A stretch of 64,000 bases of DNA from a virus. The stretch covers positions 1 to 64,000 of IMG/VR virus record IMGVR_UViG_3300044981_000387, one strand, 5' to 3'. Shown here in pieces: positions 1 through 64,000 of the stretch. The first letter of the stretch is position 1; each line of letters starts with the position of its first letter. The notes below the pieces were generated by a model, which saw nothing but the letters and a program-made list of their open reading frames with translations, made no database searches and was not told the DNA's origin. Made by a program: the position numbers and the translations under genes.

Positions 1-93
1 AGAGTTCTCGAATTGCTTCAACCAATGATCTTCGCTAATATGTTCGTCAGTGTTTCTAGAAACTACTGACTGATGTCTATTATATTTGGACAT
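1..93 (-). CDS. N-terminal fragment of a hypothetical protein running off the window edge (MSKYNRHQSVVSR...)
   Basis: ATG at 93, 7 nt after the upstream stop at 101; open frame to position 1. Confidence 0.6.
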   Translation of the reverse strand, partial: MSKYNRHQSVVSRNTDEHISEDHWLKQFENS

Positions 94-100
94 TTAATAT

Positions 101-988
101 TTACCCTTGAAAATTATTTTCCCAAATATATACAATATTATAGCCAGCCTTCTGTAATGTTTCTTGACGCCTCATAGTATGATTATATAGGTCTCCAAAT
201 GTCTTTTTATTCATTTGATTATAATCAGATGAATTATAGATATCTGGATTGCCGTGCCAATAGTCCCCATAAAACTCATAAATAGTATTAGAGGCTAAAT
301 CGAAACCATCTACCTTAAATATCTTACCTGCAATGTGAATGGTTTTGTTTCGTTCTTTAATATTGAGAGAATCTAACCATTTAGTTTCCATTTTAGAAAT
401 ACTTGAAGTGCATTTAGAACATCCGTGTCCAGCTAAATGATTATCTGGAGTTTGATGAAACTCCCCATGAGTTGGACACATTATGATTACATATTGTTTA
501 ATAGTTTGATAATCAATTAAAGAATAATCATATTTATTATTGTGGATAAGCGAAGCCCTATCTGCAAAATCTTGCCACGATAACTTTTGAGCTTCAGCCA
601 TTTTTGCTGGACCACATTGAGGGCATCCGTGCCCTTCAAGGTGCTTATTGGGCGTTTGCTCGAAAATTGAATGATGAATATTACAAATTAATTTAACCTT
701 AGTGGAATTATTTTTATATTCCACCAACGAATAATCATAAACATTGCCATGAATACCTTGCGCTCTTTCCACAAATATTGGGGTATCTAATTTTTTGTTT
801 CTAGTGCAGGAGGGGCACCTATCTCCACGCATATGATTTTGTGCTATTTGTGTAAATATTCCATGAATTGGACATACAATACTCACCTTATTTTTAGTTC
901 CAGTGAAAATAGACGCTGAATAATCATAAAAATTATTATTAGCAATATTAGATCTTTGTATGAAATCTTCTTGACTTATTTTTTTCAT
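101..988 (-). CDS. Homing-endonuclease-like protein: three YDYS/CxxHG...CxxC repeats (DUF723/CapR-like) plus C-terminal Vsr/PD-(D/E)XK-like nuclease
   Basis: Repeated YDYS...CPIHG..F.Q..H..G..CP.C units; C-terminal KVDG...YEFYGDYWHGNP...WE. Confidence 0.8.
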   Translation of the reverse strand: MKKISQEDFIQRSNIANNNFYDYSASIFTGTKNKVSIVCPIHGIFTQIAQNHMRGDRCPSCTRNKKLDTPIFVERAQGIHGNVYDYSLVEYKNNSTKVKLICNIHHSIFEQTPNKHLEGHGCPQCGPAKMAEAQKLSWQDFADRASLIHNNKYDYSLIDYQTIKQYVIIMCPTHGEFHQTPDNHLAGHGCSKCTSSISKMETKWLDSLNIKERNKTIHIAGKIFKVDGFDLASNTIYEFYGDYWHGNPDIYNSSDYNQMNKKTFGDLYNHTMRRQETLQKAGYNIVYIWENNFQG

Positions 989-989
989 A

Positions 990-1967
990 TCATGACTTGA
1001 ATTGTTGCATCAATTCCAAATTATCTTCAGAACCTGGATCAAAATCTTCGTTGGCAATTACTGAACGATCGTAAGGCATTGGGAAACCAAAATCAAAAAG
1101 CAGCTGCCTTAATTCAAACTGTTCACGATCAGATAGTTTCCATTGTTTAACTTGTCTATTATATAGATCAGATATATCGTGTCCTGCCGAAACTGCTCCG
1201 TTAATACATATTCTGGCGATACCAGAAATCAATAATGGAGCTACGATAACCACGCCTGATACTCCTAAAATCTTTTGAGCATCTTTAACGAAACCCTCTA
1301 CTTGTACTTCAGAAGACTTCTTTCGTTTCTTGTATGGTTTTTTGCTTTCTTTAATTTTTTCTAAACGATCTTGTAAACGAGCAATACCGTCTTCTACATC
1401 TGCACGAACTTTTTCAATCTTATTAGCATCTAACTCGCCGTCCAAATCCATTCTCATAGCTCTGGAAATTTCATTATCCAACTTTTCTAAATAAGCTTGA
1501 GCTCTTTCGCATCCAGCCGTATCTTTACCGCTGTGCTTGGGCACACTATCAATCTTTTCTTTGATCCAAGTTACGAAACCATGGGGACCTCTAGCAGACC
1601 AATCCCACTTTTCATTCTTAAGCTTCTTGGCATCATTAGCATCATCAGGTTTCTCGTCAGTATGAATGGGTTCATCCATCACCTCTAACATAGGCTCTGG
1701 ATCCTTGGTACCAGCGGGGGCACCTGGTAACTCTTCCACTACGATCTCTACATCTACTGGTTCGGTAACTTCTAAGGCAGGAGTACCGCGCATATCACCA
1801 GGAGCCTCGTGCATGTGTTTGGCACCCATATCATGAATATGACCAGCCATATCGCCCTCTCCCATAGGGAGGGACACTTCCAGTGGCATGAGCGCAGATG
1901 GATCTACCACTAATAATTGTTGATCTTGTGCTAGGGATTGTAATGACATTGATATACCTCTAAACAT
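990..1967 (-). CDS. Hypothetical protein, acidic N-terminus, probably virion-associated
   Basis: 325-aa ORF, tightly packed; no recognised family. Confidence 0.6.
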   Translation of the reverse strand: MFRGISMSLQSLAQDQQLLVVDPSALMPLEVSLPMGEGDMAGHIHDMGAKHMHEAPGDMRGTPALEVTEPVDVEIVVEELPGAPAGTKDPEPMLEVMDEPIHTDEKPDDANDAKKLKNEKWDWSARGPHGFVTWIKEKIDSVPKHSGKDTAGCERAQAYLEKLDNEISRAMRMDLDGELDANKIEKVRADVEDGIARLQDRLEKIKESKKPYKKRKKSSEVQVEGFVKDAQKILGVSGVVIVAPLLISGIARICINGAVSAGHDISDLYNRQVKQWKLSDREQFELRQLLFDFGFPMPYDRSVIANEDFDPGSEDNLELMQQFKS

Positions 1968-1978
1968 TAGATATGCTC

Positions 1979-2503
1979 TTATATGCCATAATAACCATGT
2001 TTAACCACATTCCATTCACTTTCCCATATAGAAACAACATGATATCCCGTTTTTATTAAGTCCCTTTCTTTTTCTATGGTTCTTGCGTAAAGTTCTCCAA
2101 AAGTCGTTTTAGTAATACAATTAATTTCTTTTGAATCATATTTGTTTGGATTTCCATGCCAAAAATCACCATTAAACTCATAAACTGTATTGGTGGTTGG
2201 ATCATAGGCATCTACTTTGTATTTTTTGTTGCCAATTTCTATTATCTTTTGTCTATATTTTTCTTCAATATTAAGATCATTTAACCATTGTGTTTCTGGT
2301 TTCGATATTGTATTTACGCATTTGGGACAACCACATTTATTAAATAAGTGTGCGTCTGCCGTTTGAAAAAATGGACCGTGCTTCTTACAAATAATTTTTA
2401 TCTTTATTTTATTATTTACATATTCCACTAATGAATAATCATATCGATTATCATGAACTAATTTGGCTTTAATAATAAAATTATTTCCATTATATTTTGT
2501 CAT
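1979..2503 (-). CDS. Homing-endonuclease-like protein, paralog of 101..988 with a single repeat
   Basis: YDYS...CKKHG..CPKC then KVDAYD...YEFNGDFWHGNP...WESEW. Confidence 0.8.
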   Translation of the reverse strand: MTKYNGNNFIIKAKLVHDNRYDYSLVEYVNNKIKIKIICKKHGPFFQTADAHLFNKCGCPKCVNTISKPETQWLNDLNIEEKYRQKIIEIGNKKYKVDAYDPTTNTVYEFNGDFWHGNPNKYDSKEINCITKTTFGELYARTIEKERDLIKTGYHVVSIWESEWNVVKHGYYGI

Positions 2504-2972
2504 TCAAAACACCAACTGCATAAGGTGAAGTCGTGTCTTGTTCCAGATTCGGCTCATCAGAAATAATCAAACTTTTTATTTTGTGATTGTTAAAGGGTAA
2601 AATTATGGTTTCGCCGGGCTCCCTTCCGTTTAATGGGGTAGATATGAAACAAGAATACATTTTTCCGTTTTTATCTTTAGCGCGAATAGTTATGGTTATG
2701 TGCTCATCAGTAAGAGTATCAATGGCCTCTATGGTAGCTGCCAAATTTTGTAATTGTTTTTCTCGAATAGACATTACTTTTTCTTCGCCTTCAAAAGGGC
2801 GACGAGCCGCTATTTCTTCGGGAGAGTCCGCAATCGCATACCATCCCTTATGAGTTTGCCCCAAAAAATCTGGCAAATTATTCTTGTTCTTAAATGTTTG
2901 ATCATGATCATAAATCTGATAATAATAACAAGTTGGTATATATATTTTTTTCATAACAATACTTTCATTCAA
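2490..2972 (-). CDS. Hypothetical protein
   Basis: 160-aa ORF overlapping both neighbours in operon fashion. Confidence 0.55.
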   Translation of the reverse strand: MNESIVMKKIYIPTCYYYQIYDHDQTFKNKNNLPDFLGQTHKGWYAIADSPEEIAARRPFEGEEKVMSIREKQLQNLAATIEAIDTLTDEHITITIRAKDKNGKMYSCFISTPLNGREPGETIILPFNNHKIKSLIISDEPNLEQDTTSPYAVGVLNDKI

Positions 2973-3177: not shown

Positions 3178-3224
3178 CTTACCTCCGCCATACTTTGTAT
3201 ATACCTTTATGCCCAGAATTCAAA

Positions 3225-6913: not shown

Positions 6914-6914
6914 A

Positions 6915-17830: not shown

Positions 17831-19021
17831 TTACTTATCCTTCTTATTCTTTTTCTTCTCAGAGAGAACTTCTGCTTGAGCTTCAAAGGCGGCTCTTTTG
17901 GCTGCCTGTTCTTGTCTTTTCTGCTCCATCTTGGCTTCGCGTGCCTGACTGACCTTCAATAAAAGCTCTTCAGCTAAAACAGGATCAGCCTTAATAGCTT
18001 CACAAAACTTAGGAAAACCCACCCACTTACGATCTCCGTATTCATGAGATACACTGTTAGGTTTGATAACTACGTCATAGTCTAAGGCAAGTTGTGCGAT
18101 TTCCTCGTGCTTATCTATAACACCAATTCCGAAGTTGACCTTGAATTCGCACTTACGTGGCCAAGGCCCAAATTTTGACTTTTCGATAGTGGCACGAAGT
18201 GGATGTCCAATTTTGTTTTCTTTTTCGTCCAAAATAACAGAATCTTTACGTGATACCGCCTCGAAATATACGTTAGCACTTAAAGTGTGTGCATAAGTAT
18301 TACCGCCCGAAAAAGTATGATCAGCACCGTATGGATCCATATTATCTCTCTTATGATTGATAATAATAAAAGGAACTTGCGCCTTATTAACCTCTAAAGT
18401 CAGCTTACGGAAAGTGGTAGTAAGAAACCTAGCTAATAAAGCCATATTCATCTTGCCTACTGCCGAAACGTCTTCTCCTGGCGGCATGATAGAGCCCAAA
18501 GAATCTAGCACAATTAAATTGATATTAAACTCTCCACTAACAATGTGATCCAACATGCCAGGTTTGCTCTTCCCTTTCAGAATATGAGTCTTGGCGTCTT
18601 CTTTAGGAACGCCTAACAATAATTCAAAACATTTGCGACCATTAGCAGCAGTATCACTATCAATGACTAATACCCTAGAGGTATCTACCCCTAATACTTC
18701 TGCCCAATTCGGATCGAAAGTTTGTTCGGCATCAATAAACACTTGTTGTGCTGCGGGATCTTGTCGTTGGGCCTCAACCATAGCGATCATAGCCATTAAG
18801 GTCTTACCACTGCCGGTAGGCCCATAATATTGGATAAGCCTGCCTTTAGGGAGACCGCCAGATGACAAAGCGTCATCTAGCGCATAGGAACCAGTAGAAA
18901 TAACTGGAACTTTTTCACCCACCGTTTCGTGGGCCATTCGATAATCTATTTGTTCTTCTGAATCAGCAAAGCTGGCGAAAAATGCACTAAACTTGTCTTT
19001 CTTCTTTTTATCTTCTGACAT
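17831..19021 (-). CDS. recA: RecA-family recombinase
   Basis: ISTGSYALD.AL..GGLPKGR, Walker A GPTGSGKT, FIDAEQ, IVLDS, SGG, KSKFG. Confidence 0.93.
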   Translation of the reverse strand: MSEDKKKKDKFSAFFASFADSEEQIDYRMAHETVGEKVPVISTGSYALDDALSSGGLPKGRLIQYYGPTGSGKTLMAMIAMVEAQRQDPAAQQVFIDAEQTFDPNWAEVLGVDTSRVLVIDSDTAANGRKCFELLLGVPKEDAKTHILKGKSKPGMLDHIVSGEFNINLIVLDSLGSIMPPGEDVSAVGKMNMALLARFLTTTFRKLTLEVNKAQVPFIIINHKRDNMDPYGADHTFSGGNTYAHTLSANVYFEAVSRKDSVILDEKENKIGHPLRATIEKSKFGPWPRKCEFKVNFGIGVIDKHEEIAQLALDYDVVIKPNSVSHEYGDRKWVGFPKFCEAIKADPVLAEELLLKVSQAREAKMEQKRQEQAAKRAAFEAQAEVLSEKKKNKKDK

Positions 19022-28595: not shown

Positions 28596-29849
28596 TTATT
28601 CTCCTATTATTTTAACCGATTTAACTATGAAATCCATGGTATGTTCATCTCTAATGCGAGAGAACAAAATCTGCAAATATCCTGTTCTATTCATTTCTTG
28701 AATAACTTCATCCAATGATTTTTGTATTTTAGTTTGAGCTAGGTTCTTTTTAATAATCTCAAATACTTCTTGATCACTTAGCTGTGAATCAACTTCTTTT
28801 TCTCTAATGGCATCTAAAATCAAAGATAACTTAACATTTTTAGTAGCCATCTCCATAAACTTCTCTTTATCTGCATCAGCAATGGTGGTCCAATCTAACT
28901 GCGATTGATGGGCCAAATATCTAGCTTCAGACAACGACATCCAGTTGGGCACATTGATGGTATTATCAGCCACCAAGCGCTTAGCTACTGCATCTTGAAT
29001 GGCCATCTTGGCAGCACCTGCTACACGAGCGGTAGCCGCTAATTGTACTTGCTCACGCAATTCCACAAAATCTTTTTTTCCCATTTTAGTGGCCAATTCG
29101 TCATTAAGCGGACAAGGAGTATTTTTAGCTCCCGTTATTAAAATCACCTTGAAATGCACCGTTTTGCCAGCAATAGATGGTAAACTACCCTCTGGAACAT
29201 GAATGTCAAACTCACGAGCTTCTCCACTTAACATGCCTAACAAATTAGGATCAAAATCAGGAATCTGATTGCTGCCAATAGTGACCATTTCACCAGAGGC
29301 AGATAGATTATCTACCTTGACGCCATCAATGGAACCTTCATAATCAATAATGATATTATCACCATTTTGGACTACATCAGTATCACTATAAGGAGCCGCA
29401 TCACCTAAACGCACGCGCAATTCTTGCATCATTTGTTCGGCGACTTCATCTACCTTCGGCGTATTATGAGGTTTAACCACTTCCATATTTTGGAAAGGGG
29501 TCAACTCAAACTCTGGCTTAGTATACATCTCAAACTCACAGGTAAATTTACCGCCATCTAACAACAGAGAGTTAAACTTGGGAGCACCATGTGGGCGAAG
29601 TTTTTTCTCGAACAAAGTATTGTGAAAAGCATCTTCTGCCAAAGCTCTCTTCAAGGATTCTTCGATTTGTTGACGATAGTGCATTTTGATAGCATCCATC
29701 GGAATCGGCTTTCCAGGTCTAAACCCAGGGACCGGGGCTTTCTTAAACTGATTTTGCACCTCAGCTCTTTTGTCCATTATTTCTAAAGCATTAGCTTCAT
29801 AATGGACATTTAATTTGCATGATTCAATTTCATTAACTTCGATTTGCAT
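28596..29849 (-). CDS. tig: Trigger factor (ribosome-associated chaperone/PPIase)
   Basis: Signature VPGFRPGK, FKBP domain (DYEGSIDG...IPDFD.NLLG), C-terminal domain; 417 aa. Confidence 0.9.
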   Translation of the reverse strand: MQIEVNEIESCKLNVHYEANALEIMDKRAEVQNQFKKAPVPGFRPGKPIPMDAIKMHYRQQIEESLKRALAEDAFHNTLFEKKLRPHGAPKFNSLLLDGGKFTCEFEMYTKPEFELTPFQNMEVVKPHNTPKVDEVAEQMMQELRVRLGDAAPYSDTDVVQNGDNIIIDYEGSIDGVKVDNLSASGEMVTIGSNQIPDFDPNLLGMLSGEAREFDIHVPEGSLPSIAGKTVHFKVILITGAKNTPCPLNDELATKMGKKDFVELREQVQLAATARVAGAAKMAIQDAVAKRLVADNTINVPNWMSLSEARYLAHQSQLDWTTIADADKEKFMEMATKNVKLSLILDAIREKEVDSQLSDQEVFEIIKKNLAQTKIQKSLDEVIQEMNRTGYLQILFSRIRDEHTMDFIVKSVKIIGE

Positions 29850-32822: not shown

Positions 32823-35030
32823 TCACCACGAAGACACTACCTTTGCCTGGGATACCATATTTATATCTTGCTCCACTAAGATAGCATGTGAAAATTTATC
32901 TTTTAACTGATCATTGTGAGTAATAACTAACACTGTAAAATCTTTTTGTAAAAACTTGATTATCTCGACGAAGGCGTCCACTCTACCCTTACTTAAGGAC
33001 TGATCTAACTCATCAAGCAGCAAAAACTTAATATCAATACCCAATAGGTTCTGCAATAGAAAAGAGATGCCTAATTTAAGACTAAACAATACCATTAACT
33101 GCATGGCTCCCGAAAGCTGTTCATAATAGCGTTTTTTACCACCCACTTGATACTGAATATCTAAAGTATCTGCCTCTGTTCCATCTCCTTTGGTCTTTTC
33201 AACAAAGAAAGAAAGTTGCAGGTTAGGTCTAAATTGAGTTAGTAATTTATTGACTTCTACTTGTAAGTCATCTAAAATATTATGAATAATAAGGTTAGGA
33301 ATACCGGTGCTAGAGAAGGCTTGGGCCACCAAAGGATATACGCCCAACTTGTTTTCTAAATCTAGAAACAGTTTAGATAGATCTTCTTTCTTTTGCTTAT
33401 CTAAGCCTCTTTGCGTAATACTGTGCTCTAATACGGCTTTGTTGCTGGTGAAATGAGTAACTTCTTTGTTAGCAATACCTATTTTATTAGCTACTTGGAC
33501 TATATTTTTCTTTTCAAGTTCAATTTGTTTCTGCAATATTTTAGCCTCTTCTAGAGAGGAGTTTTTTAACTCCTCTTGCGCTTTCAACAATTCTTGCTCT
33601 TTTTCCTTTAATTCATTAGAGTTTCTCTCTAAAGTGGCAGAATATTCATTATGTAAGTTACGCTTATCCGCTAATTCTTTTTTCTTGGTGACAATTTTAT
33701 TCATCACGCTCTCTAAATGTTGTTTAGAAAGGGTCGTACTATTAATAGCTTGTTGGTGAGCTTGAATTTCTAAGTTTAGCTTTTGCACGGCAATCTTGAT
33801 ATTTTTAATGTTAACCTGCAATTCCGTCATTCTAGTACGATCCTTAATCAAATGCTCTTGTCGGTGTTGATCGGTCATAGGCTGACGACAATGCTTGCAC
33901 ATACTATCAGTTGGCATAGGGATCTTTAGCTCCTCATATTCTTCCATATCAGTCTTAATGCTAACATTATGTTGTGTCACCAACACCTTTTTGTTTTCTA
34001 TTTTTTCGGAAAGAATATCTATTTGAGCGTAATCAATGGTTAAAAGTTGCGTTTGTGTTTCTTCTAATTGTTTAACCTCTATCACTAATTCGCGAGCTTC
34101 CTTAACGATGTTAGATTTCTTAGTTTGATATTCTTTAACAGTAGTTTCTAATCTGCTTTTAGCTTGTATAATAGTTTGTTCGATGGCTAATGAAGCAGAA
34201 AACTTACTTTCCAAACCATTATAGTCGTTAGTGAGCTGACTCACCTTATTGTTGAGCCGCTCTATTTCCTCTTGATAAGTAGACATCAACAATAGACTAG
34301 AGGCTAAGTTCTTTTCCACCTCTATCATTTGAGTACGCATTTTTAGTAAATCGACTTCAGGATCTCCCAGCCCCTCAATCAGAGCGCGAACACGATCTAA
34401 CTCTCTGGAAAGGGCAGCAGACTTATCCTTAGTTAGTTTTTCTAGTTTAGCATAGATAACTAGATTCAGGGCATCTTTGAGAATAGCTTTTCGTTTTTCT
34501 GGAGTGGCAGTCGCTAGACTGGTAAAATCATGTTGTACAAAATGCACAAAGGTTCTGAATGACTTATAGTTAATCTTAAGAAGCTTATTTAAGTCCTTCT
34601 CAGTATCTGCTGCGCGTCTGCCTGAAATGTCTTCCCAATACTTTTTATCAAACAATGTTTCATAGGTATCGGTATGCAAAACTTGTTCTATGGTGCCTAT
34701 TTCTGCCGTTCTTTCATATAAAGACAGATCAGTAGAGCCTTTAATCGTACGTGTGCGCGCGAGCCTATATTCTTTATCACCCATAATAAAATCGAATACC
34801 ACTTTACAAGAGGTCGCATCATCTCTGATAATGCTTTCTAAATTGAAATTGGATTGATTGAATAACACATATTCAATAGACTTAAAAATGGTAGTTTTGC
34901 CTACACCATTAGCCTCAGCATCATTGCCTTCTGCCCTACCTACCAATATAGCTGAACTAAATTGAGTGAAATCTATGTAGGCCCAATCATAGCACATAAA
35001 ATCATTTATGTATAAACGCAAAGGTCTCAT
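32823..35030 (-). CDS. sbcC: SbcC/Rad50/gp46-like SMC ATPase
   Basis: NGVGKTT Walker A, coiled coil with CKHC hook, LSGAM signature, LLLDELD Walker B. Confidence 0.9.
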   Translation of the reverse strand: MRPLRLYINDFMCYDWAYIDFTQFSSAILVGRAEGNDAEANGVGKTTIFKSIEYVLFNQSNFNLESIIRDDATSCKVVFDFIMGDKEYRLARTRTIKGSTDLSLYERTAEIGTIEQVLHTDTYETLFDKKYWEDISGRRAADTEKDLNKLLKINYKSFRTFVHFVQHDFTSLATATPEKRKAILKDALNLVIYAKLEKLTKDKSAALSRELDRVRALIEGLGDPEVDLLKMRTQMIEVEKNLASSLLLMSTYQEEIERLNNKVSQLTNDYNGLESKFSASLAIEQTIIQAKSRLETTVKEYQTKKSNIVKEARELVIEVKQLEETQTQLLTIDYAQIDILSEKIENKKVLVTQHNVSIKTDMEEYEELKIPMPTDSMCKHCRQPMTDQHRQEHLIKDRTRMTELQVNIKNIKIAVQKLNLEIQAHQQAINSTTLSKQHLESVMNKIVTKKKELADKRNLHNEYSATLERNSNELKEKEQELLKAQEELKNSSLEEAKILQKQIELEKKNIVQVANKIGIANKEVTHFTSNKAVLEHSITQRGLDKQKKEDLSKLFLDLENKLGVYPLVAQAFSSTGIPNLIIHNILDDLQVEVNKLLTQFRPNLQLSFFVEKTKGDGTEADTLDIQYQVGGKKRYYEQLSGAMQLMVLFSLKLGISFLLQNLLGIDIKFLLLDELDQSLSKGRVDAFVEIIKFLQKDFTVLVITHNDQLKDKFSHAILVEQDINMVSQAKVVSSW

Positions 35031-36217
35031 TCTTTGGCCTCTAGTTTATTAAGAACCACTATTTCCATAGCCAATTCAGTAAAAGCAGGACGCAATTTAT
35101 CCTCAATATATTTATCGGCATATGTTTTAATGGAAGTAGATACGTCCATCTTGGTATCGATAGTATTATTACTATCTTTTTTGATTAGCGATATTTTTTT
35201 GGATTCAGTAATGCCAGTAATATTAAAAGCCCCTTGAGACGATAAATATTTTTCAATAGTCGCTTTGTTAACTGATTTAAGCTCGGGTGCCGCTAAAGAT
35301 ACTTCTACTCGCACAATAGATTTATCCCAGGTTTTTTCCTGTTTTAATTGTTCTAACACATATTCTGTTGGATCTTCAGTATCTTTGGGGACCACTACAC
35401 TGAACTTCTTTAAGGCACGAGTAGGAAGATATTCGGTGTCCCATTGTCCAGTCATACAATCAAAAATAACGATATGCTTCTTTTGATCAGTTTCACTAAA
35501 ATTAGAAATATCCATACTGCCAATGTGAGCAATATGAGGAGATTTTTGCATTACCTGTGGTGCATGCACATGGCCCATCCATGTGTAATTATAGCCTTGA
35601 AACATATCTAAAGGACAAAATAATTCATTAGTAATATCATCGATTTCATCGCCTACCGGAATGGATCCTTCGATAGCTAAATGACCTACCAGCACTTTTT
35701 GATAGGTAACGGGAATGCTAGCCAACTCATACACTAAACTATCTCGTAACAAAGAAATGGCTTCTGCATTAGAACTTACACTAAAAGCCTTTCTATCACG
35801 ATAAGGCATAAAAGTGAAAGCAGTTCTATCTATTAGAATAGTATCAATATCTCGATACACACTGACATTATCTAGATCCACTTCACTAATAACATCTAGC
35901 GGAGAGGCATATACGAAGCCACTACGCAAAATATCATGATTGCCTAAAATGATATGAACATTAACTCCATGCACTTGACACTTTTTAAGCCAAGCAACAA
36001 AAATAGCTAGCAACGAAGGATGTGGTTTAGGGTCCTCAAACACATCTCCAGTGATGATGATATGTTCTGAATGATGCTCTAAAGCCCTATCCAGCGTCCA
36101 CTCTAACAAATTGATCTGATCAACGATGCGACTATTGAGATTAGCACCTAATACAATTTTACCAATTGAGGTACCTTTTCCAAGGTGCGGATCGCCTAAA
36201 AGTATTACATTTGACAT
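35027..36217 (-). CDS. sbcD: SbcD/Mre11/gp47-like nuclease
   Basis: GDPH, TGDVF, GNHD, GH, GHVH metallophosphoesterase motifs; adjacent to sbcC. Confidence 0.9.
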   Translation of the reverse strand: MSNVILLGDPHLGKGTSIGKIVLGANLNSRIVDQINLLEWTLDRALEHHSEHIIITGDVFEDPKPHPSLLAIFVAWLKKCQVHGVNVHIILGNHDILRSGFVYASPLDVISEVDLDNVSVYRDIDTILIDRTAFTFMPYRDRKAFSVSSNAEAISLLRDSLVYELASIPVTYQKVLVGHLAIEGSIPVGDEIDDITNELFCPLDMFQGYNYTWMGHVHAPQVMQKSPHIAHIGSMDISNFSETDQKKHIVIFDCMTGQWDTEYLPTRALKKFSVVVPKDTEDPTEYVLEQLKQEKTWDKSIVRVEVSLAAPELKSVNKATIEKYLSSQGAFNITGITESKKISLIKKDSNNTIDTKMDVSTSIKTYADKYIEDKLRPAFTELAMEIVVLNKLEAKE

Positions 36218-42167: not shown

Positions 42168-42881
42168 TTATTCTAGGAATAATCCAATTTTAATAGGTAC
42201 TCTTTTAATAATAATTATGTCGTCATCTGGAATGGGATTTCCTTCACACATTTCATGTTCACCAAATACTAGAGCTCTAGCCTGCTCTTGGATTTCTTCC
42301 ATGGGACCCGAACATACTGGAACGCCGCTCACTATTAATAAGTAGGCACCTTCTTCTAAATCGTTCACAACAGGGAATAAATCGTTCTCCGGAGCAGGAG
42401 TGGTGGTAGTTTGTGGTACCGCAAATTGTTTAGCTGGAGGGGTTTTAACTTCATCTAACAACATCGGCAACTCCTCAGGTAAACCCATATTTCTAGATAA
42501 TGGAGTAACATAATCATTATTATCAATCATGGGGCGGTCAGGATCGACTGGCAACTCACTAGACAAATCATCTACGATATCACCATCCACACTAGACCAA
42601 GTGTGTTCCACATTATTACCAACATTAGGAATAGGTCCTCTACCCCTACCGACGGGTGAAGTAACAGCTTCAGCATATGGCTGTCGTATAGCCGCTTTAC
42701 GCACACGTGGATTATTATCAGAAGCTTTGGGTGTAGCTACTTTGGTGTTTTCAGGTACCACCGCACTCTTAAACTCACCTGGCTCCTTGCCCAAAATCTG
42801 CCATTGTGGGACGTATGGTTTAGTTTGTTCTGGCGAACCACGATCACGACTTGTATAGGTTTTTACTTTATTATCAGACAT
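42168..42881 (-). CDS. Hypothetical Pro-rich protein
   Basis: Likely start MSDNK; the longer ORF overlaps rpsU. Confidence 0.55.
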   Translation of the reverse strand: MSDNKVKTYTSRDRGSPEQTKPYVPQWQILGKEPGEFKSAVVPENTKVATPKASDNNPRVRKAAIRQPYAEAVTSPVGRGRGPIPNVGNNVEHTWSSVDGDIVDDLSSELPVDPDRPMIDNNDYVTPLSRNMGLPEELPMLLDEVKTPPAKQFAVPQTTTTPAPENDLFPVVNDLEEGAYLLIVSGVPVCSGPMEEIQEQARALVFGEHEMCEGNPIPDDDIIIIKRVPIKIGLFLE

Positions 42882-44635: not shown

Positions 44636-46444
44636 TTAGGCGACATTTTTAATCGGTTTAGTATTACGACACTTAGGAAAAGCGGTGCAAGCAAAAAAAG
44701 TGGAACCATCTACTTTATTAGTTCGGAGGGCCATCGGACTATCGCACTGGTTGCACAGCGCGGCTCCATGTTGTGTATATGCCCGGTTCAATTGCAGTTT
44801 GTATTCTGGATAAAACTTTTTTAACATATCAACGTGATCTACCTTGCCGCTTTCAATTTCATCTAATTGTTGTTCCAGCTTGGCTGTGTAATCGTAATCC
44901 ATAAAAGTAAAGTATTGTAATAATTCCTGAGTGATACGCTTACCTAACTCGGTAGCGTGATACACATTACCCTTCTTTTCCACATAATTACGAGTAGTAA
45001 TTTTGCTTAATAAGTCTGCGTAGGTAGCCGGGCGCCCAATACTCTTATTAACCAACTCTTTGATGAGCTTATCTTCCGAATATCTGGGCGATGGTTGCGT
45101 CTGTTTCTTTTCCATCTTAACTGGCGCCTTACCCCAATGATGTAGGATATCTCCCTTGTGTAAATTAGGAATGTCAATTTTAGTTATATCATCCACTGCA
45201 ACACCAGTAAAAATATTTAGATAACCTTCACTTTTTAGAGCTTTACCAGAAGCTTTAACTTCGGCGGATGGATCACCTTGCACATGAGCCGTCACTTTGA
45301 GAGTATCATAAACGGCTGGCATCATTTGACTAGCTACAAAGTTTTGCCAAATAACTTGATATACTAACTTTTCATCAGGATCGATAATAGCAAAATTATG
45401 ATCTGGCAACAAAGTAATATCGGTTGGATGAATACACTCGTGAGCGTCCTGTGCTGCATCTCTATTTTTATAGAGATTGGGCTTGTTAGGAACTGCATAT
45501 TTATGCTCTTTTAACCAATCACGCAGCTCTTTGATGCTATTATCATCGATACGAACTGAATCAGTTCTAATATAAGTGACATACCCGCCTTCATAAAGAG
45601 ATTGTGCCGCTTTCATAGTACGGTCGGCACCAAAACCATACTCTTTAGACATAATTTGCTGTAAAGTGGAGGTAACTAATGGAGCATATGGGTTTTTCTT
45701 TTCTTCTTCAGATATCACTTCGGTTACCACAAACTTGGCATCTGTAGCCGCTAATTTAGCGCGCATTGTCTCAGCAGCAACTAAATCGGTAGGACGACCA
45801 GAGTATTTAGTAGTAAAACCGTGTTTGGTGTCCTTGGATAAAGTCACTTGAATAGTCCAGAACTCTTCAGGAATAAAAGTCTCAATTTCTCTCTCACGAT
45901 CAATCACCAAGCGAGTGACCACTGATTGCACTCGACCTGCCGATAATTTGGAACCAAAAAAGTTCATCAAAAATGGAGAGGCAGTAAACCCAACTAAACG
46001 ATCTAGAATGCGACGAGCTTCTTGAGAATGAAATAGGTTCATATCAATATCGCGTACTTCTTTGACTGCCTTTAAGAGAGCGTCTTTTTTAATCTTGTTA
46101 AAGACCATACGCTTGATAGGCTTGCCCATATCCTCTAAACGTTGAGCTAAATGCCAAGCAATAGCTTCACCTTCACGATCAGGGTCGGAAGCTACAAAAA
46201 TCTGATCCACCTTTTTGGCTGCTGCCATCAACTCATTTAATACATCTACTTTATCATCAATTAAGACATAGTGTGGCTTGAAATCTTTGTCCACATCTAC
46301 GCCCAACCCATGTTTTCCACCTTTAGCTAAATCAGTAATATGGCCCTTGCTAGCCATAACAATATAATCTTTTCCTAGGTATCCTTGAATGGTGGCGGCT
46401 TTATGGGGCGATTCTACGATAACTAACGTTTTAAGATTATTCAT
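44636..46444 (-). CDS. topA: DNA topoisomerase IA
   Basis: LVIVESP.KA, SKGH, ASDPDREGE, SAGRVQS, YVTYIRTDS, C-terminal Zn ribbon. Confidence 0.95.
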   Translation of the reverse strand: MNNLKTLVIVESPHKAATIQGYLGKDYIVMASKGHITDLAKGGKHGLGVDVDKDFKPHYVLIDDKVDVLNELMAAAKKVDQIFVASDPDREGEAIAWHLAQRLEDMGKPIKRMVFNKIKKDALLKAVKEVRDIDMNLFHSQEARRILDRLVGFTASPFLMNFFGSKLSAGRVQSVVTRLVIDREREIETFIPEEFWTIQVTLSKDTKHGFTTKYSGRPTDLVAAETMRAKLAATDAKFVVTEVISEEEKKNPYAPLVTSTLQQIMSKEYGFGADRTMKAAQSLYEGGYVTYIRTDSVRIDDNSIKELRDWLKEHKYAVPNKPNLYKNRDAAQDAHECIHPTDITLLPDHNFAIIDPDEKLVYQVIWQNFVASQMMPAVYDTLKVTAHVQGDPSAEVKASGKALKSEGYLNIFTGVAVDDITKIDIPNLHKGDILHHWGKAPVKMEKKQTQPSPRYSEDKLIKELVNKSIGRPATYADLLSKITTRNYVEKKGNVYHATELGKRITQELLQYFTFMDYDYTAKLEQQLDEIESGKVDHVDMLKKFYPEYKLQLNRAYTQHGAALCNQCDSPMALRTNKVDGSTFFACTAFPKCRNTKPIKNVA

Positions 46445-49443: not shown

Positions 49444-50432
49444 TAGACTCCAAAATTATGACAAACTTCCGATGCTGTAATATATGCCACTTGAAATCGC
49501 TCTAGAAAACGAAAATTATCTCTAACTAAAGCATCGCCTTTACCTAATAGATTTTCGGCGCCCGTCACATCTAAAATGACCTTACTGTCTACATGGCTGG
49601 CCACACGACAAGCAATACGAGCCGGAAAATTGGCTTTAATGGCACCATTGATAATATTAACGGAAGGTCGTTGGGTGCCTAACACTAAACATATGTGAGC
49701 GGCACGGGATTTTTGTGCTAAACGACATAGTTTGTTAAAAAACTGATCTTCCTTATCTTGCATAATCAAATCAGCAAACTCATCTATAATCATCACTACA
49801 TAAGGAAGCTCTCCTGGAAGAAGACCCTCCCGCATTAAAGAATATCTTTGTTCCATCAATTCCAATAATGAATCCAATAATATAATTGTTTCATCATAAG
49901 TGTAGAAAACCTTGCTATTATGTAAACGATCTTCATAAGGACCAAACTCAATTCTCTTAGGGTCCACTAAACACACCACACAATCACTATAATTATATAG
50001 ATTAGCTATCAAATTATGCAATAAGGTGCTCTTACCAGAGCCAGTGGTGCCAGCGACAATCATATGAGGATTCAACGACAAGTCCATCCACAATCTTTTG
50101 CCATCCACCGTTTGGCCCAATAAGCATGGAAGACCACCTTCAGGCACATCTTGGTTGGTGAAATAATCCATCAACATCAAAGACTTTTCACGAGGGGAAG
50201 CGAACTCTAAACGGACCACCCCTTGTTCGTGCAACACTTTAATACTGGGACGACATGGAGTCTTGAGCGCCAAAGAAATCTCATCACCATATCGATGGAT
50301 ATCTTTAACCTTAGCGTGCGGATCTAATTTGAGATCATAGAAGAAATAGTTGTCTACTATTTGACTATTAACGCAATTAGCTTGAATATTAAATGCATGA
50401 AGAATCTTGTTAAAATGCTGAATACTTTCCAT
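49443..50432 (-). CDS. FtsK/SpoIIIE-family ATPase (alpha and beta domains, no membrane or gamma domain)
   Basis: PHMIVAGTTGSGKS, VDPKRIE, IIDEFADL, TQRPS, GAENLLGKGD. Confidence 0.9.
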   Translation of the reverse strand: MESIQHFNKILHAFNIQANCVNSQIVDNYFFYDLKLDPHAKVKDIHRYGDEISLALKTPCRPSIKVLHEQGVVRLEFASPREKSLMLMDYFTNQDVPEGGLPCLLGQTVDGKRLWMDLSLNPHMIVAGTTGSGKSTLLHNLIANLYNYSDCVVCLVDPKRIEFGPYEDRLHNSKVFYTYDETIILLDSLLELMEQRYSLMREGLLPGELPYVVMIIDEFADLIMQDKEDQFFNKLCRLAQKSRAAHICLVLGTQRPSVNIINGAIKANFPARIACRVASHVDSKVILDVTGAENLLGKGDALVRDNFRFLERFQVAYITASEVCHNFGV

Positions 50433-60006: not shown

Positions 60007-60082
60007 TGGTGCCCTCAGCAAGAATTGCACCTGCGACATTCGCCTTAGGAGAGCGACGTTCTATCTGCTGAACTATGAGGGC
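60007..60082 (-). tRNA. tRNA-Arg (anticodon CCU), CCA encoded
   Basis: GCCCTCA/TGAGGGC acceptor, GTTC/GAAC D stem, TCGCT-CTCCTAA-GGCGA, T loop TGCAATT, ACCA end. Confidence 0.92.
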
Positions 60083-60089: not shown

Positions 60090-60638
60090 TTATGCCTTAC
60101 TTTTAGTAGGAGACACGATAAGCCACATAAACTTACCTTCAAGGGAAATCTGTGGATTTGGTTGAATTAGTCCATCTAATTCTTTAACGATAAAATCTAA
60201 TTTTTCTTTACCAATATTAGAATGAGTTATTTCGCGACCCCTAAACCTAACCGTAAACTTGACCCTATTGCCATCTTCCAAAAACCCTTTAGCTTGTTCT
60301 AGCTTGTGGTTTAAGTCGTTTTCGTCAGTTGAAGGTCTAAAAGTAAGCTCCTTTAATTCCTGCACCGTTTGGTTCTTTTTGGCAGCTTGTTGCTTTTTCT
60401 TTTCTTCATATTTCATCTTGCCAAAATCGGCGATGCGACACACTGGGGGCACGGCTTTTGGATTAATTTCAATTAAATCTAGACCTTCATCTTGAGCTAG
60501 CTTGAGGGCCTCTCGGGTGCCCATGATGCCACCGTTCTTACCATCACTTAAGATAACTTGAACTTGGGGCACTCTTATATGGTGATTAATACGAGTCCTA
60601 TATTGTTGCTGTTGTTGATTATTGGCGGTGGTCTGCAT
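60090..60638 (-). CDS. infC: Translation initiation factor IF3
   Basis: RIN..IR.PQV, EALKLAQ..GLDLIEI.P...PPVCRIADFGK.KYE, KVKF-like RVKFTVRFRGRE. Confidence 0.95.
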   Translation of the reverse strand: MQTTANNQQQQQYRTRINHHIRVPQVQVILSDGKNGGIMGTREALKLAQDEGLDLIEINPKAVPPVCRIADFGKMKYEEKKKQQAAKKNQTVQELKELTFRPSTDENDLNHKLEQAKGFLEDGNRVKFTVRFRGREITHSNIGKEKLDFIVKELDGLIQPNPQISLEGKFMWLIVSPTKSKA

Positions 60639-61299: not shown

Positions 61300-61320
61300 G
61301 GTAAATTATATATCATTCTA

Positions 61321-61566
61321 TTAGCTATCATTTTTAGCAAAAGACTTGCCTAAATAATATAATCCAATAAAGGGACTAGCAGCACACATAACCAGCAAAA
61401 CAAGAGGCCAGGCAGCAGCTATAATAAATGTTATCATTAACATAGCGTCGCTATCATCATAAAATGCATTAGGATCTTTAGGGGCTTTCTTACCTGCTAT
61501 GAAGGCTCCAATACCCATAATTATAATTGACACCATTATCCAAATAACTACATATACGCTTATCAT
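61321..61566 (-). CDS. Small two-helix membrane protein
   Basis: Two hydrophobic segments; AAAWP...SPF motif. Confidence 0.6.
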   Translation of the reverse strand: MISVYVVIWIMVSIIIMGIGAFIAGKKAPKDPNAFYDDSDAMLMITFIIAAAWPLVLLVMCAASPFIGLYYLGKSFAKNDS

Positions 61567-61569
61567 ATT

Positions 61570-61803
61570 TTATTTCCTTGTGGCTAAAAAACGACCCATA
61601 TGATACAGGGCTACAAAAGGTGCCATCGCACAAGCTAGCGCCAATACTCCGGGCCAGGTGGCAGCCAACCAAAAAGCAGGCACCATTATGCTTTCAGCTT
61701 CTTTAATTTTGCCACTAGCTTTTTGATAACCAGCTACCACAGCTCCAATGGCAATAATCACTGGCATCATACCAAAATATATAGTAAAATACAAATCAAT
61801 CAT
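61570..61803 (-). CDS. Small two-helix membrane protein, paralog of 61321..61566
   Basis: AATWP...APF motif; AGGA RBS. Confidence 0.6.
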   Translation of the reverse strand: MIDLYFTIYFGMMPVIIAIGAVVAGYQKASGKIKEAESIMVPAFWLAATWPGVLALACAMAPFVALYHMGRFLATRK

Positions 61804-61821
61804 ACATTTCCTTAATTAAGT

Positions 61822-61895
61822 TGGAGGGCCTTCCGGGAGTTAAACCCAGCTCTGCGAGTTTAGAGTTCGCGGCACAATCGCTATACCAAAAGCCC
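61822..61895 (-). tRNA. tRNA with CUA (amber-decoding) anticodon, non-canonical D and T loops, CCA encoded
   Basis: GGGCTTT/AAGGCCC acceptor, GTAT/GTGC D stem, GCGAA-CTCTAAA-CTCGC, CTGGG-TTTAACT-CCCGG, TCCA end. Confidence 0.85.
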
Positions 61896-61903
61896 CTTTA
61901 TCT

Positions 61904-62116
61904 TCAGTTCAAGTTGGTAAATTGTTTAATCGGAGGGTTTTTGACTTCATCCAATGTGGGCAATTCTTCTTTATTTAATTCTGCCTCAAACTCTTGTCTT
62001 TGACGATCGGCTCTCTTCTCAAACCAATCTTCCGCAAAACGCCATACAACACCCAAAACTGCACCCGCCAATACTACCAAACCCATTAGTTCTACTAACC
62101 ACATGACTTGCCTCAA
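61904..62116 (-). CDS. Small protein with N-terminal membrane anchor
   Basis: Hydrophobic first 26 aa then charged tail. Confidence 0.55.
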   Translation of the reverse strand: MRQVMWLVELMGLVVLAGAVLGVVWRFAEDWFEKRADRQRQEFEAELNKEELPTLDEVKNPPIKQFTNLN

Positions 62117-63078
62117 CTTAATGCCATCATTCGATTGATGGACAACCTAGCACCATTCATCAATTCCTCTGACATTATTATCTGAGGATCCAAATCTCTT
62201 AAAGAGAGATATACCTTCTCCAAAGTATTCTTCTTCATGTAAGGGCACTCATTGCAAGCGCAGCTGGCTTCCGGAGGAGCTGGAATAAAAATTTTATCAG
62301 GGCAAGCTTTACGCATCTGATGTAGGATACCCGATTCTGTGGCCACAATAAACTCGGAAGCGGAACTGGATACCGCATATTTGAGTAGTCCAGTGGTGGA
62401 TGAAATATGATCTGCCATATTAAGAATGGCTTCCTCGCATTCCGGATGAGCAATAATGAGGGCTTGCGGATGTCGAGTTTTGAGAGCAATCAACTTTCTT
62501 TGACTGAAAGTCTCATGCACCACACAGGTGCCTTGCCACAAAACCATGGGAATGTCGGTCTTTTTGATAATATAGGCTCCCAGGTGCTTATCGGGAGCAA
62601 ACAGCAGTTGTGAGCCATTCTGGGCGGCATGTCTAACAATTTTTTCGGCATTGGAAGAGGTGCAAATATAATCGGATAAGGCCTTGACTTCCGCCGAACA
62701 GTTGATGTAGCTAATAACAATGGAATCGGGATATTGAGCTTTCCAATGGGCAAACTGATCGGCAGGACAACCGTCAGCTAAAGAACAGCCAGCCGTTAAG
62801 TCGGGAAGCACCACTATTTTATTGGGACTAAGAATCTTGGCGGTTTCAGCCATAAAATGGACACCGCAAAAACATATAGTGTCAGCGTTAGTAGCGGCAG
62901 CTTGTTGCGACAGTTGCAAAGAATCACCAATAAAGTCGGCTACATCTTGAATGTCGGAATCTTGATAATAATGGGCCAAGATAACGGCATTACGACTTTT
63001 CTTCAGCTTATCAATCTCTGCTTCCAAATCGAGAGAAGGATCGACATACGGCTGATTGAGAATCGGTAGATTATTCAT
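62113..63078 (-). CDS. nadA: Quinolinate synthase A (NAD biosynthesis)
   Basis: ILAHYYQ, GDSLQL, CGVHFMAE, GCSLAD, YINCS, APDKHLG, CVVH, AHPEC, CPYMK. Confidence 0.96.
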   Translation of the reverse strand: MNNLPILNQPYVDPSLDLEAEIDKLKKSRNAVILAHYYQDSDIQDVADFIGDSLQLSQQAAATNADTICFCGVHFMAETAKILSPNKIVVLPDLTAGCSLADGCPADQFAHWKAQYPDSIVISYINCSAEVKALSDYICTSSNAEKIVRHAAQNGSQLLFAPDKHLGAYIIKKTDIPMVLWQGTCVVHETFSQRKLIALKTRHPQALIIAHPECEEAILNMADHISSTTGLLKYAVSSSASEFIVATESGILHQMRKACPDKIFIPAPPEASCACNECPYMKKNTLEKVYLSLRDLDPQIIMSEELMNGARLSINRMMALS

Positions 63079-63280
63079 TTATCACAGCCAATTCATCAGA
63101 AATGAAACGAACACTGACATCAAAATATTCTTTTCCATTATCTACCACTGGATTATCAAGAAGAACTTTGATGGTACCCGCGCCTTCCCAACCCTCATCG
63201 ATCAAGACAATTTTACCCATACGATTATGAAAGCGCTCTTCGTTAGGAGTATTTACTTTAACACGATCATTAACTTTCAT
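63071..63280 (-). CDS. Small KOW/SH3-like hypothetical protein
   Basis: MKVNDRVKV...GKIVLID. Confidence 0.5.
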   Translation of the reverse strand: MKVNDRVKVNTPNEERFHNRMGKIVLIDEGWEGAGTIKVLLDNPVVDNGKEYFDVSVRFISDELAVINE

Positions 63281-63555
63281 CTGATACTCCTATAGCCTTT
63301 ATTGAAACACTCATCCATATCCAAATCGTGATGAATTAGTCTCAGCTTACAACCATAATGTAGTTGAAGCCAAGTATAGATAGTTTCATCTTTGTCTAAC
63401 AAATAAGCATGCGTGCATTCCACACTATCAACGAAAATATCCAACATTTCTTTGTGCTCATCGCACACAGCTTTATACCAAGTCTTCATTTTCCTTAACA
63501 AGCTCCAAATCGGCACCCTCATGACCGTTGCCACCCGACCAATTAGAAAGAACAA
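63277..63555 (-). CDS. Hypothetical protein
   Basis: ORF overlapping neighbours; start uncertain. Confidence 0.45.
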   Translation of the reverse strand: MFFLIGRVATVMRVPIWSLLRKMKTWYKAVCDEHKEMLDIFVDSVECTHAYLLDKDETIYTWLQLHYGCKLRLIHHDLDMDECFNKGYRSIR

Positions 63556-63940
63556 TTTTACTTCCCAATTCTTGTTCTACTTGTCCAATGGCCCAATCAA
63601 GATCTAAGTCCCAAATCCAAATATTAAGATACACTGGCACGCCATCTAAAAAAATAATAGTGGCAGAACCTTCTTTACCTTTGCCGCCAGTAAACGATAT
63701 ATCTGTATATGTAATTCGTGGATCTGGCTCGGGATCTGGAAAACCATCTATTTTGTTGATCATTTTATAATATTCAGATAGTTTCATTTTCCAATTCTTC
63801 TTTCCATTTTTCATTGCAGGAATCTTTATGACATAATTCATGGGGCCAACCCATAGTGGCAAAATCCCATTTACCTTCCAATAAGAGCAAAACATCTCGT
63901 GGCAAAACATATCCCATGCTTTCATAAATGGGTGTGCCAC
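63473..63940 (-). CDS. Hypothetical protein (true start probably the internal MKLSEY)
   Basis: The 5' part overlaps 63774..63983 in another frame. Confidence 0.45.
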   Translation of the reverse strand: MAHPFMKAWDMFCHEMFCSYWKVNGILPLWVGPMNYVIKIPAMKNGKKNWKMKLSEYYKMINKIDGFPDPEPDPRITYTDISFTGGKGKEGSATIIFLDGVPVYLNIWIWDLDLDWAIGQVEQELGSKIVLSNWSGGNGHEGADLELVKENEDLV

Positions 63941-63983
63941 AATATATGCATTGTCGTTGAGCCATAAAAGGTAATTGAATCAT
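63774..63983 (-). CDS. Small zinc-binding hypothetical protein
   Basis: CIYC and CH..C motifs. Confidence 0.45.
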   Translation of the reverse strand: MIQLPFMAQRQCIYCGTPIYESMGYVLPRDVLLLLEGKWDFATMGWPHELCHKDSCNEKWKEELENETI

Positions 63984-64000
63984 AAATCCCGATAATCCTT

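Follow-up and report, generated by a model that had tools for sequence, protein, structure and literature searches.

Why should a phage that keeps to the standard genetic code, and carries tRNAs with the anticodon CUA, have no gene ending in TAG over tens of kilobases? The question is raised by a stretch of 64,000 nucleotides (hereafter the window), the initial 64 kb of a 120.7-kb contig (completeness 28%) from a giant soil phage with a huge genome of ∼450 kb. The window was searched as DNA, for near and for distant matches, against cultured and deposited phages, and no match was obtained. An earlier note, made from the window sequence, had proposed that TAG is absent there both as a stop and as a sense codon, and that the phage, together with a CUA tRNA, has purged its amber stops. 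The analysis reported here supports this interpretation in part, and shows that the purge is regional.

Stop codons of the window and the contig

Genes were called as greedily chosen, non-overlapping open reading frames (ORFs) with a codon-usage filter, and not with a standard gene finder. These independent calls gave 91 genes in the window, 85 of them on the minus strand, ending in TAA (63) or TGA (28) and in no case in TAG, as the earlier note had reported. Although 99 ORFs of at least 30 amino acids do end in TAG, none passed the filter (score >0.1, and less than half overlapping with accepted genes), none both scored positive for coding and occupied free space, and the 50 minus-strand ORFs listed among them are 86–100% contained in accepted genes. 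The triplet itself occurs in the DNA about as often as expected (observed/expected ratio 0.99 under a first-order Markov model), and it makes up 25–26% of the stop triplets in intergenic DNA, and likewise over all frames together.

At an assumed TAG share of 10%, finding 0/91 would have a probability of 7e-5, and at 11.5%, the share in the orthologs of a relative described below (G005), of 1.5e-5. Against the rate of the contig itself, where 3/171 genes (1.8%) end in TAG, this probability is about 0.19, which is unremarkable; what stands out is therefore how low the rate is in the lineage and in the gene block, not the exact coordinates of the window. The contig has a GC content of 38.7%, and TGA accounts for 32% of its stops; a single stop codon, TAG, is depleted under the standard code. 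Outside the window TAG stops persist in 3–4 of about 80 genes, including those for the NAD-ligase LigA and a glycosyltransferase (Table 1). Read-through of LigA into a downstream in-frame metallophosphatase was considered and rejected, as the BRCT domain extends to the final residue and the orthologs, of the same length, stop at TAA.

When TAG is read as sense, the coding density of the contig barely rises, from 95.5% to 95.9%. No TAG was found aligned within homologous proteins in a comparison of five related genomes, and no window gene requires TAG as a sense codon, in agreement with the claim that these genes are written in the standard code. In a homology screen for in-frame TAG across six frames, off-frame alignments drowned the signal; when it was rerun on accepted frames only, the TAGs that remained were all in 5′ leaders. 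The claim that TAG is not a sense codon thus holds within the window, but not for the genome, since the sole sense TAG found on the contig is codon 4 of a PTH2-like gene beyond the window end. The suggestion that sense TAGs might lie outside the window is therefore literally true, for this one gene.

Table 1. Features of the window and the adjoining contig (window positions, except where marked contig).
Feature	Position	Strand	Evidence or stop
TAG-free core gene block, first ∼62 kb (replication, recombination, chaperone genes)	1..64000	-	stop tally
RecA homologue	17831..19021	-	Pfam RecA 6.2e-37
DnaE-type DNA polymerase III alpha, 1176 aa	23738..27268	-	stop TGA
Trigger-factor homologue (ribosome-associated chaperone)	28596..29849	-	Pfam Trigger_N 6e-20, Trigger_C 3e-09, FKBP_C 2.2e-06
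SbcC-like ATPase	32823-35030	-	Pfam AAA_23/SMC_N
SbcD-like phosphoesterase	35027-36217	-	Pfam Metallophos
Type IA DNA topoisomerase (TopA)	44636..46444	-	Pfam Topoisom_bac 1.2e-109
tRNA-Arg(CCU), syntenic marker flanking the amber module in all relatives	60007..60082	-	
IF3 homologue, phage translation module	60090..60638	-	Pfam IF3_N 5.6e-28, IF3_C 4.6e-26; stop TAA
tRNA, anticodon CUA, type b	61822..61895	-	ARAGORN, Rfam
Quinolinate synthase NadA, between both CUA tRNAs	62113..63078	-	Pfam NadA 2.8e-119; stop TGA
tRNA, anticodon CUA, type a	contig 64242-64314		
PTH2-like gene	contig 64656-64324		Pfam PTH2 8e-10
Glycosyltransferase	contig 75453-76241		TAG stop
NAD-ligase (LigA)	contig 116105-117979		ends TAG-TAG
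191-aa gene	contig 118105-118680		TAG stop

CUA tRNAs, a gated gene and RF2

The contig encodes two CUA tRNAs, type b inside the window and type a just outside it. Type b has an encoded CCA, the discriminator U73, a D stem of 3 bp and an A31-C39 mismatch, and scores 35.7 bits on the Rfam tRNA model, against a gathering threshold of 29 bits. Its elbow is atypical, and the Rfam score is modest. An exact-pattern search in IMG/VR and a BLAST search against ten relatives both failed to find it elsewhere because the orthologs are too diverged; they were recovered by ARAGORN on the fetched genomes. The alignment of five orthologs (this one and four others) shows compensatory changes at 11 of 20 stem pairs and an invariant anticodon loop, CUCUAAA. 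Among the relatives searched, type b is restricted to clade A, in which TAG use is lowest, and the CUA tRNAs are syntenic across 8 genomes. The tRNA proposed in the earlier note is thus real, conserved and found in the same place in relatives, and from its sequence the phage suppressor tRNA looks functional. Among CUA tRNA orthologs the discriminator base varies (U, A or G), and the best similarity to other phage tRNAs, 0.69 to tRNA-Lys, is weak and permits no inference as to the amino acid. A tRNA(UUA) call in the relative G001 was not credited, its structure being poor.

The type a tRNA starts 9 nt beyond the stop codon of the PTH2-like gene. This gene begins ATG TGT TCG TAG AAC GAT AAA, and its TAG (contig position 64647) lies 647 nt past the window end; there is no usable start between this codon and the conserved N-terminal strand, and the gene is translatable only through UAG. 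The arrangement M-x-(x)-TAG, with the conserved motif GDKLYV(I/V)TR after it, is present in 8/8 genomes with the cassette (a CUA tRNA and the gated gene), while the gene is missing from G005, G012 and G014. The cassette lies 0.2–0.7 kb past the window end, and a tmRNA adjoins it. No paper describing such a cassette was found in the literature searched.

RF2 was not found on the 28%-complete contig, but is carried by the relatives G001–G004 and G011. In relatives RF2 scores 383–402 bits on TIGR00020 (cut-off 370) and possesses the SPF and GGQ motifs; its identity as prfB was confirmed in the two tested, G001 and G003.

TAG use in related phages

Relatives were found using DnaE as the marker. 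In three near-complete genomes, I defined a block as the run of same-strand genes from the amber cassette to the phage RF2, which includes DnaE, terminase, portal, protease and RNR. TAG stops within the block number 0/192 in G001, 2/194 in G003 and 6/188 in G002, against 16/318, 29/319 and 44/297 outside it (5–15%), with Fisher p values of 8e-4, 8e-5 and 2e-5 respectively. Together with the TAG stops on the rest of the contig, this contradicts an amber purge of the whole genome. Two of these three relatives have 40–57 tRNAs, and G002 has 16.

Among orthologs of the window genes, TAG stops amount to 1/293 in five cassette-bearing relatives (G001, G003, G006, G007 and G010), 5/59 in G005 and 3/53 in G012. 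Within 10 kb on either side of DnaE, 1/260 genes ends in TAG across 11 clade-A-like contigs. Clade A combines the highest GC content (39–45%) with the lowest TAG share (1.8–5%), TGA remaining at about 30%. TAG loss is therefore not GC-driven, as the TAG share falls while GC rises within the family. The strongest depletion belongs to one lineage, clade A, and independent events are few.

The relative G005 (97% complete) has no CUA tRNA, PTH2-like gene or RF2; TAG ends 10.1% of its genes overall and 14/122 (11.5%) of its block-gene orthologs. Candidate ‘intron-containing’ suppressor tRNAs, called there by ARAGORN at a relaxed threshold, were rejected on inspection as artefacts. TAG avoidance is thus not shared by this relative without the tRNA, and the equal avoidance that the earlier note named as evidence against its reading is not seen there.

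Proposed weakening of the amber stop and its alternatives

The TAG-free block begins directly after the tRNAs predicted to read TAG, which makes it probable that, during infection, the phage reduces the reliability of TAG as a stop signal and that it has cleared TAG from its core genes. I therefore propose, with moderate confidence, that phage-imposed amber suppression, combined with RF2, purged the core genes of TAG. An amber-decoding module would stand at the head of the core block, consisting of the two CUA tRNAs, the gated PTH2-like hydrolase, the tmRNA and IF3. Once it is expressed, UAG would become undependable as a stop, because the phage tRNAs would decode it, and termination at UAA and UGA would be secured by the phage RF2, a factor that does not recognize UAG. 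Selection against C-terminal read-through would then remove TAG stops from the core replication and morphogenesis genes, since these must be made correctly under the UAG-decoding regime. Accessory genes outside the block retain TAG; either their expression would precede the switch, or they would have arrived too recently to be purged. The genome is not recoded; beyond the gating codon, TAG is simply unused in the block. What the genomes show directly is the pattern of stop codons, the tRNAs with the gated gene and RF2, and the contrast between relatives; from these I infer charging and activity of the CUA tRNAs, their role as the cause of the purge, and its timing. It counts against the proposal that backup TAA or TGA codons are no closer behind the residual TAG stops than behind other stops (median 9 vs 12 codons, p = 0.45).

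An unlikely, but not negligible, alternative is a bias between core and accessory genes that is unrelated to the suppressor, the cassette merely sitting at the boundary. A long-resident, highly expressed core would prefer TAA and TGA, through host release factors or expression-linked stop choice, and the accessory arms would be foreign DNA acquired recently, in which TAG use is ordinary. These arms do differ in composition: the 415–480 kb end of G001 has a GC content of 48–50%, against 41–43% in the core, and carries small, phage-type accessory genes, for which reason it was rejected as a host flank and gives no host baseline. Within clade C, cassette status has no effect (5.3% TAG in G013 with the cassette, 6.7% in G012 without). 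It also counts against the main proposal that G002, with both cassette and RF2, still has 9.7% TAG overall and 3–6% in the block. Moreover, TAG loss is not exceptional in three unrelated phages that bear the cassette but lack a full-length RF2, namely Mycobacterium phage Catera (24/135, 18%), LR756500 (6/245; TAG/TGA 0.19) and LR756501 (10/276; 0.22), the ratio in the cassette-less G005 being 0.25; nor was the block pattern replicated when looked for in the latter two. A suppressor tRNA alone hence does not predict a purge, and on this point the earlier reading is not supported as it stood. However, in G005 the core orthologs use TAG about as often as its other genes (8.5–15.8%), so that belonging to the core is not by itself enough to eliminate TAG. 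The bias would also have to account for a TAG loss that runs opposite to GC, and for block edges that coincide, in three genomes, with the cassette and, at the far end, a full-length RF2.

Somewhat less likely again is that the phage is only at an evolutionary way-station: TAG would have grown rare before the suppressor came to be tolerated, in-frame TAGs would still have to accumulate, and the tRNA would have no present genome-wide effect except gating the PTH2-like gene. Borges et al. (bioRxiv 10.1101/2021.08.26.457843) proposed such a route, from stop-codon depletion through a suppressor tRNA to recoding, with low GC depleting TGA and TAG alike, and described standard-code relatives of recoded phages in which one stop is nearly lost (e.g., TGA 4/146), one of which carries a suppressor tRNA. 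The phage described here resembles these relatives in its standard code, the near loss of one stop, the matching suppressor tRNA and the absence of the codon from replication genes. The gating codon is its sole in-frame TAG, and CUA tRNA plus RF2 is the toolkit of the TAG-recoded Lak and Agate phages. The low-GC driver does not apply, however, with GC at 39% on the contig and TGA at 32% of its stops. Unlike the phages of Borges et al., the present ones are neither from the gut nor low in GC, and TGA stays at about 30%, so that the loss is specific to TAG. It is also confined to the block that ends at RF2 on one side and at the tRNA cassette on the other; this cassette has an amber-gated PTH2-like gene and a tmRNA, and no relative is recoded (0 of the 10 sampled, a small number). 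In addition, the cassette occurs in TAG-poor and TAG-normal members alike, and the suppressor therefore seems older than the purge. The main proposal, held with moderate confidence, would itself make the present phage a variant of this ‘pre-recoding’ state, one in which low GC is not the driver.

Hidden recoding, in which late or lysis genes within the ∼70% of the genome outside the contig would read TAG as sense, is very improbable: the contig is just 28% complete and a single in-frame TAG lies right outside the window, but in G001 and G003 (both complete) and in G002 (97% complete; the first 400 of 433 kb were read) the coding density of the core does not rise when TAG is taken as sense, and their terminase, portal and structural regions have no TAG stops and no TAG-split ORFs on the coding strand.

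The proposed weakening of TAG can also be set beside other phages. Like the code 15 phages (Lak megaphages, crAss-like, Agate), the present ones have a CUA tRNA, RF2 (in the relatives) and a genome divided into regions that differ in TAG use; coding density speaks against membership in that group. Late genes there hold abundant in-frame TAG, whereas here core and late genes are without TAG as stop or sense, and the sole in-frame TAG is codon 3–4 of one small gene. The three unrelated cassette-bearing phages do not have the genome-scale stop-codon signature seen here. In size class, and in possessing between them many tRNAs, IF3, RF2, tmRNA and trigger factor, the phage and its relatives resemble the huge phages of Al-Shayeb et al. 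(2020; PMC7162821), whose translation genes include many tRNAs, IF, RF1/RF2 and tmRNA; that paper makes no mention of suppressor tRNAs (‘suppressor’ occurs 0 times) or of stop usage in standard-code huge phages.

It is conceivable, though I consider it doubtful, that each infection has two termination regimes, with TAG a stop early on and RF1-independent read-through of UAG later, a temporal switch without sense recoding. Accessory or early genes and host genes would be written for normal decoding, and the CUA tRNAs and RF2 would then make decoding in the cell RF1-independent, so that UAG is read through and only the TAG-free core is translated faithfully. TAG-ending early, host and competitor proteins would be extended or routed to tmRNA, and the PTH2-like gene would be unlocked.

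The negative results in Catera and two other huge phages imply that a suppressor tRNA gene alone is no predictor; regional TAG absence, a CUA tRNA and RF2 together provide a genomic signature for further cases. If the suppressor tRNAs cause the purge, it would be population-genetic evidence for their activity in natural infections of standard-code hosts. The phage would then represent a state foreseen by theory on recoding but seldom documented, with a codon in practice unassigned across ∼200 genes, the decoding machinery already present, and low GC not the driver. The sharp edges of the block, at the tRNA cassette and RF2, offer a testable model in which code switching may serve huge phages as a regulatory or takeover device.

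Stop codon usage in the window and its parent contig

The window covers positions 1–64000 of an IMG/VR viral contig from a soil sample, 120,727 bp long (linear class, GC 38.7%, CheckV completeness 28%). DnaE-based searches retrieved about 25 related contigs, among them complete or near-complete genomes of 350–480 kb; the contig accordingly represents part of a huge phage genome. The window genes encode RecA, trigger factor, SbcCD, TopA, DnaE, an FtsK-like ATPase, IF3 and NadA, nearly all on the minus strand; the trigger-factor homologue and IF3 enlarge this phage's already extensive complement of translation and chaperone genes.

I called genes as greedy, non-overlapping ORFs, with a codon-usage filter. 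The 91 window genes end in TAA (63) or TGA (28) and none in TAG, which bears out the earlier note's claim of some 100 genes lacking this stop; over the whole contig, however, 1.8% of genes do end in TAG. Among the 99 TAG-terminated ORFs of at least 30 aa in the window, none combines a positive coding score with free space. TAG is not depleted as a DNA word (observed/expected 0.99), represents about one quarter of stop triplets, whether intergenic DNA or all frames pooled are counted, and reading it as sense brings no gain in coding density (95.5 to 95.9%). Three solid TAG stops are found in the remainder of the contig, in the NAD-ligase (TAG-TAG), a GT92-type glycosyltransferase and a 191-aa gene, and the lengths of their orthologs confirm that each is a genuine gene end. 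A fusion of the ligase to the metallophosphatase across TAG-TAG was rejected: since the ligase orthologs end in TAA, the tandem is a double stop.

Location of features in the contig, its relatives and phage Catera
Feature	Position	Strand	Locus	Remark
Trigger-factor homologue	window 28596-29849	-		
IF3	window 60090-60638	-		
CUA tRNA type a	contig 64242-64314	-	L007:327-396	Rfam tRNA model 33.5 bits
PTH2-like peptidyl-tRNA-hydrolase gene	contig 64324-64656	-	L007:406-738	324-656 nt past window end
Phage tmRNA	contig 65047-65404	-	L007:1129-1486	Rfam 89 bits
Metallophosphatase gene	contig 115274-116083	-		starts 7 codons past ligase TAG-TAG, same frame
NAD-dependent DNA ligase	contig 116105-117979	-	L116	tandem TAG-TAG end
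RF2 gene, G001			L096:832-1926	
RF2 gene, G003			L095:838-1926	
RF2 genes, other relatives			L093, L094, L092	
Catera region with ATG-TAG-GTG	NC_008207.1 90747-91451		L177:19974-20678	directly before annotated PTH gene gp153

The PTH2-like gene and the CUA tRNAs

It had also been proposed that TAG is not used as a sense codon. This holds inside the window, but not beyond it, where the PTH2-like gene (family identity, Pfam 8e-10) starts ATG TGT TCG TAG AAC GAT AAA on the minus strand from 64656, with TAG as codon 4. All eight CUA-bearing genomes possess this gene, with M-x-(x)-TAG (TAG at codon 3–4) followed by a conserved GDKLYV(I/V)TR strand, and it is not present in the relatives G005, G012 and G014. 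TAG is therefore probably decoded at least once, outside the window. No further in-frame TAG was found within conserved proteins, in a homology screen limited to accepted reading frames.

The type a CUA tRNA begins nine nucleotides past the stop of this gene. It shows a G73, a U3-G70 pair and an odd T loop, and is missed by ARAGORN. Stem covariation is shown for the other CUA tRNA, type b, which lies inside the window. The tmRNA lies upstream of the PTH2-like gene, between it and a tRNA-Thr cluster, and is shared with G001, G002, G003, G006, G007 and G010. ARAGORN calls a CUA tRNA in these six relatives and in G013. In G001, G002, G006, G007 and G010 it is syntenic, between the tRNA-Thr cluster and tRNA-Arg(CCU), while the G003 one lies ∼127 kb away from the PTH2-like gene, and the G013 contig begins at the cassette formed by this gene and the adjoining tRNA. 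No CUA tRNA was found in G005 (361 kb, 97% complete) or in the G012 fragment; relaxed-threshold candidates in G005 are artefacts.

Several side observations were made in this region and its counterparts. Four tRNAs match the Rfam model without a default ARAGORN call (type a, matched at contig 64245-64314, and contig 65419-65489, 65577-65648 and 101312-101382), and several phage tRNAs of the contig possess non-canonical D/T-loop elbows. tRNA totals are 41–57 in G001, G003 and G007, and 16 in G002. ARAGORN also reports a tRNA(UUA) and 2- or 4-base “anticodons” (G001 50073-50149, G001 42728-42801, G007 33569-33647); the poorly folding UUA candidate is probably not an ochre suppressor. Directly upstream of the PTH2-like gene, a gene of 183–187 aa has a conserved M-S-(Y/H)-L-TAG, in frame, seven codons ahead of its annotated ATG (G001 171166, G010 64499); this could be another amber-gated start, or else a leader of the start-stop type.

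Regional loss of TAG stops

Nine relatives were fetched, whole or partial. A DnaE tree groups the contig (G000) with G001, G006, G007 and G010 (clade A), G002 with G003 (clade B), and G013 with G012 (clade C), with G005 separate. The overall TAG share is 1.8% (G000), 2.5% (G001), 2.8% (G006), 3.0% (G007), 5.0% (G010), 5.3% (G003 and G013) and 9.7% (G002) with the CUA tRNA, versus 6.7% (G012) and 10.1% (G005) without it. In no genome compared does coding density gain from TAG as sense.

In the three near-complete cassette-bearing genomes, I compared same-strand ORFs of at least 70 aa in the segment reaching from the cassette to the RF2 gene with the remainder. TAG ends 0/192 genes of this block in G001, 2/194 in G003 and 6/188 in G002, against 16/318, 29/319 and 44/297 elsewhere (Fisher p = 8e-4, 8e-5 and 2e-5, respectively). 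The loss of TAG is thus regional. The block, which encodes DnaE, terminase, portal, prohead protease, virion proteins and RNR, constitutes the core region for replication and morphogenesis. The window corresponds to its first 62 kb, in reversed orientation, which is why its genes all avoid TAG. Orthologs of the G001 block end in TAG in 0/125 cases in G006, 1/77 in G007, 0/57 in G010 and 0/56 in G000, versus 14/122 (11.5%) in the cassette-less G005, and around DnaE (±10 kb) a single gene out of 260 does so in 11 clade-A-like contigs. Backup TAA or TGA codons are not significantly closer behind residual TAG stops than behind other stops.

Full-length RF2 is encoded by G001–G004 and G011, and in G001, G002 and G003 its gene is located where the TAG-free block terminates on the 3′ side; none was found in G005. 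The two tested (G001, G003) exceed the TIGR00020 cut-off, possess the SPF and GGQ motifs, and translate as one ORF with the frameshift site absent.

Each large relative also carries a GC-rich arm (G001 415–480 kb, L054-L058; G003 420–452 kb; G005 330–361 kb; GC 45–53% vs 31–43% in the core), with small phage-type genes, mostly TGA stops and ordinary TAG use. Several large relatives carry the label “provirus” in IMG/VR; host origin of the G001 arm was rejected, given its phage-type genes.

Published comparisons and interpretation

The nearest published frame is the recoding route of Borges et al. (bioRxiv 10.1101/2021.08.26.457843), in which low GC is the driver. This driver does not fit here, because TGA makes up 32% of stops and, within this phage family, the TAG share drops as GC climbs. 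Al-Shayeb et al. (PMC7162821) list RF1/2 and tmRNA for huge phages and never mention suppressors, and the literature searched yielded no paper on TAG avoidance confined to a genome region in phages that use the standard code.

The deepest depletion belongs to one lineage, clade A, the only one with the extra type b tRNA. In clade C, the TAG share is indifferent to cassette status (G013 with, G012 without). TAG use is ordinary, with no special loss, in three unrelated phages that have a PTH2-like gene and an adjacent CUA tRNA: Mycobacterium phage Catera (24/135 annotated CDS ends, 18%), LR756500 (6/245, TAG/TGA 0.19) and LR756501 (10/276, TAG/TGA 0.22). None encodes a full-length RF2; Catera and LR756501 possess only short GGQ proteins, and LR756500 has no RF-1-domain match. 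In Catera, where ATG-TAG-GTG stands directly before the PTH gene gp153, the tRNA 250 nt downstream is recorded as tRNA-Arg, and ARAGORN reads its anticodon as CUA.

The best-supported reading, to which I give about an even chance, is that the CUA tRNA pair makes UAG unreliable, with RF2 present and the core genes purged of TAG. The stop-codon counts, the tRNAs with their covariation, the gated PTH2-like gene, RF2, the tmRNA and the contrasts between genomes are direct sequence findings; tRNA activity and amino-acid identity, the cause of the purge, the timing of expression and any host effect are inferred. The two phage tRNAs would turn UAG into an unreliable stop. RF2 would secure termination at UAA and UGA, and the resulting pressure would purge TAG stops from the core genes; accessory genes may retain TAG through earlier expression or recent arrival. 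Comparison with the RF2-less cassette phages, across few lineages, suggests that RF2, the second tRNA or both mark strong suppression.
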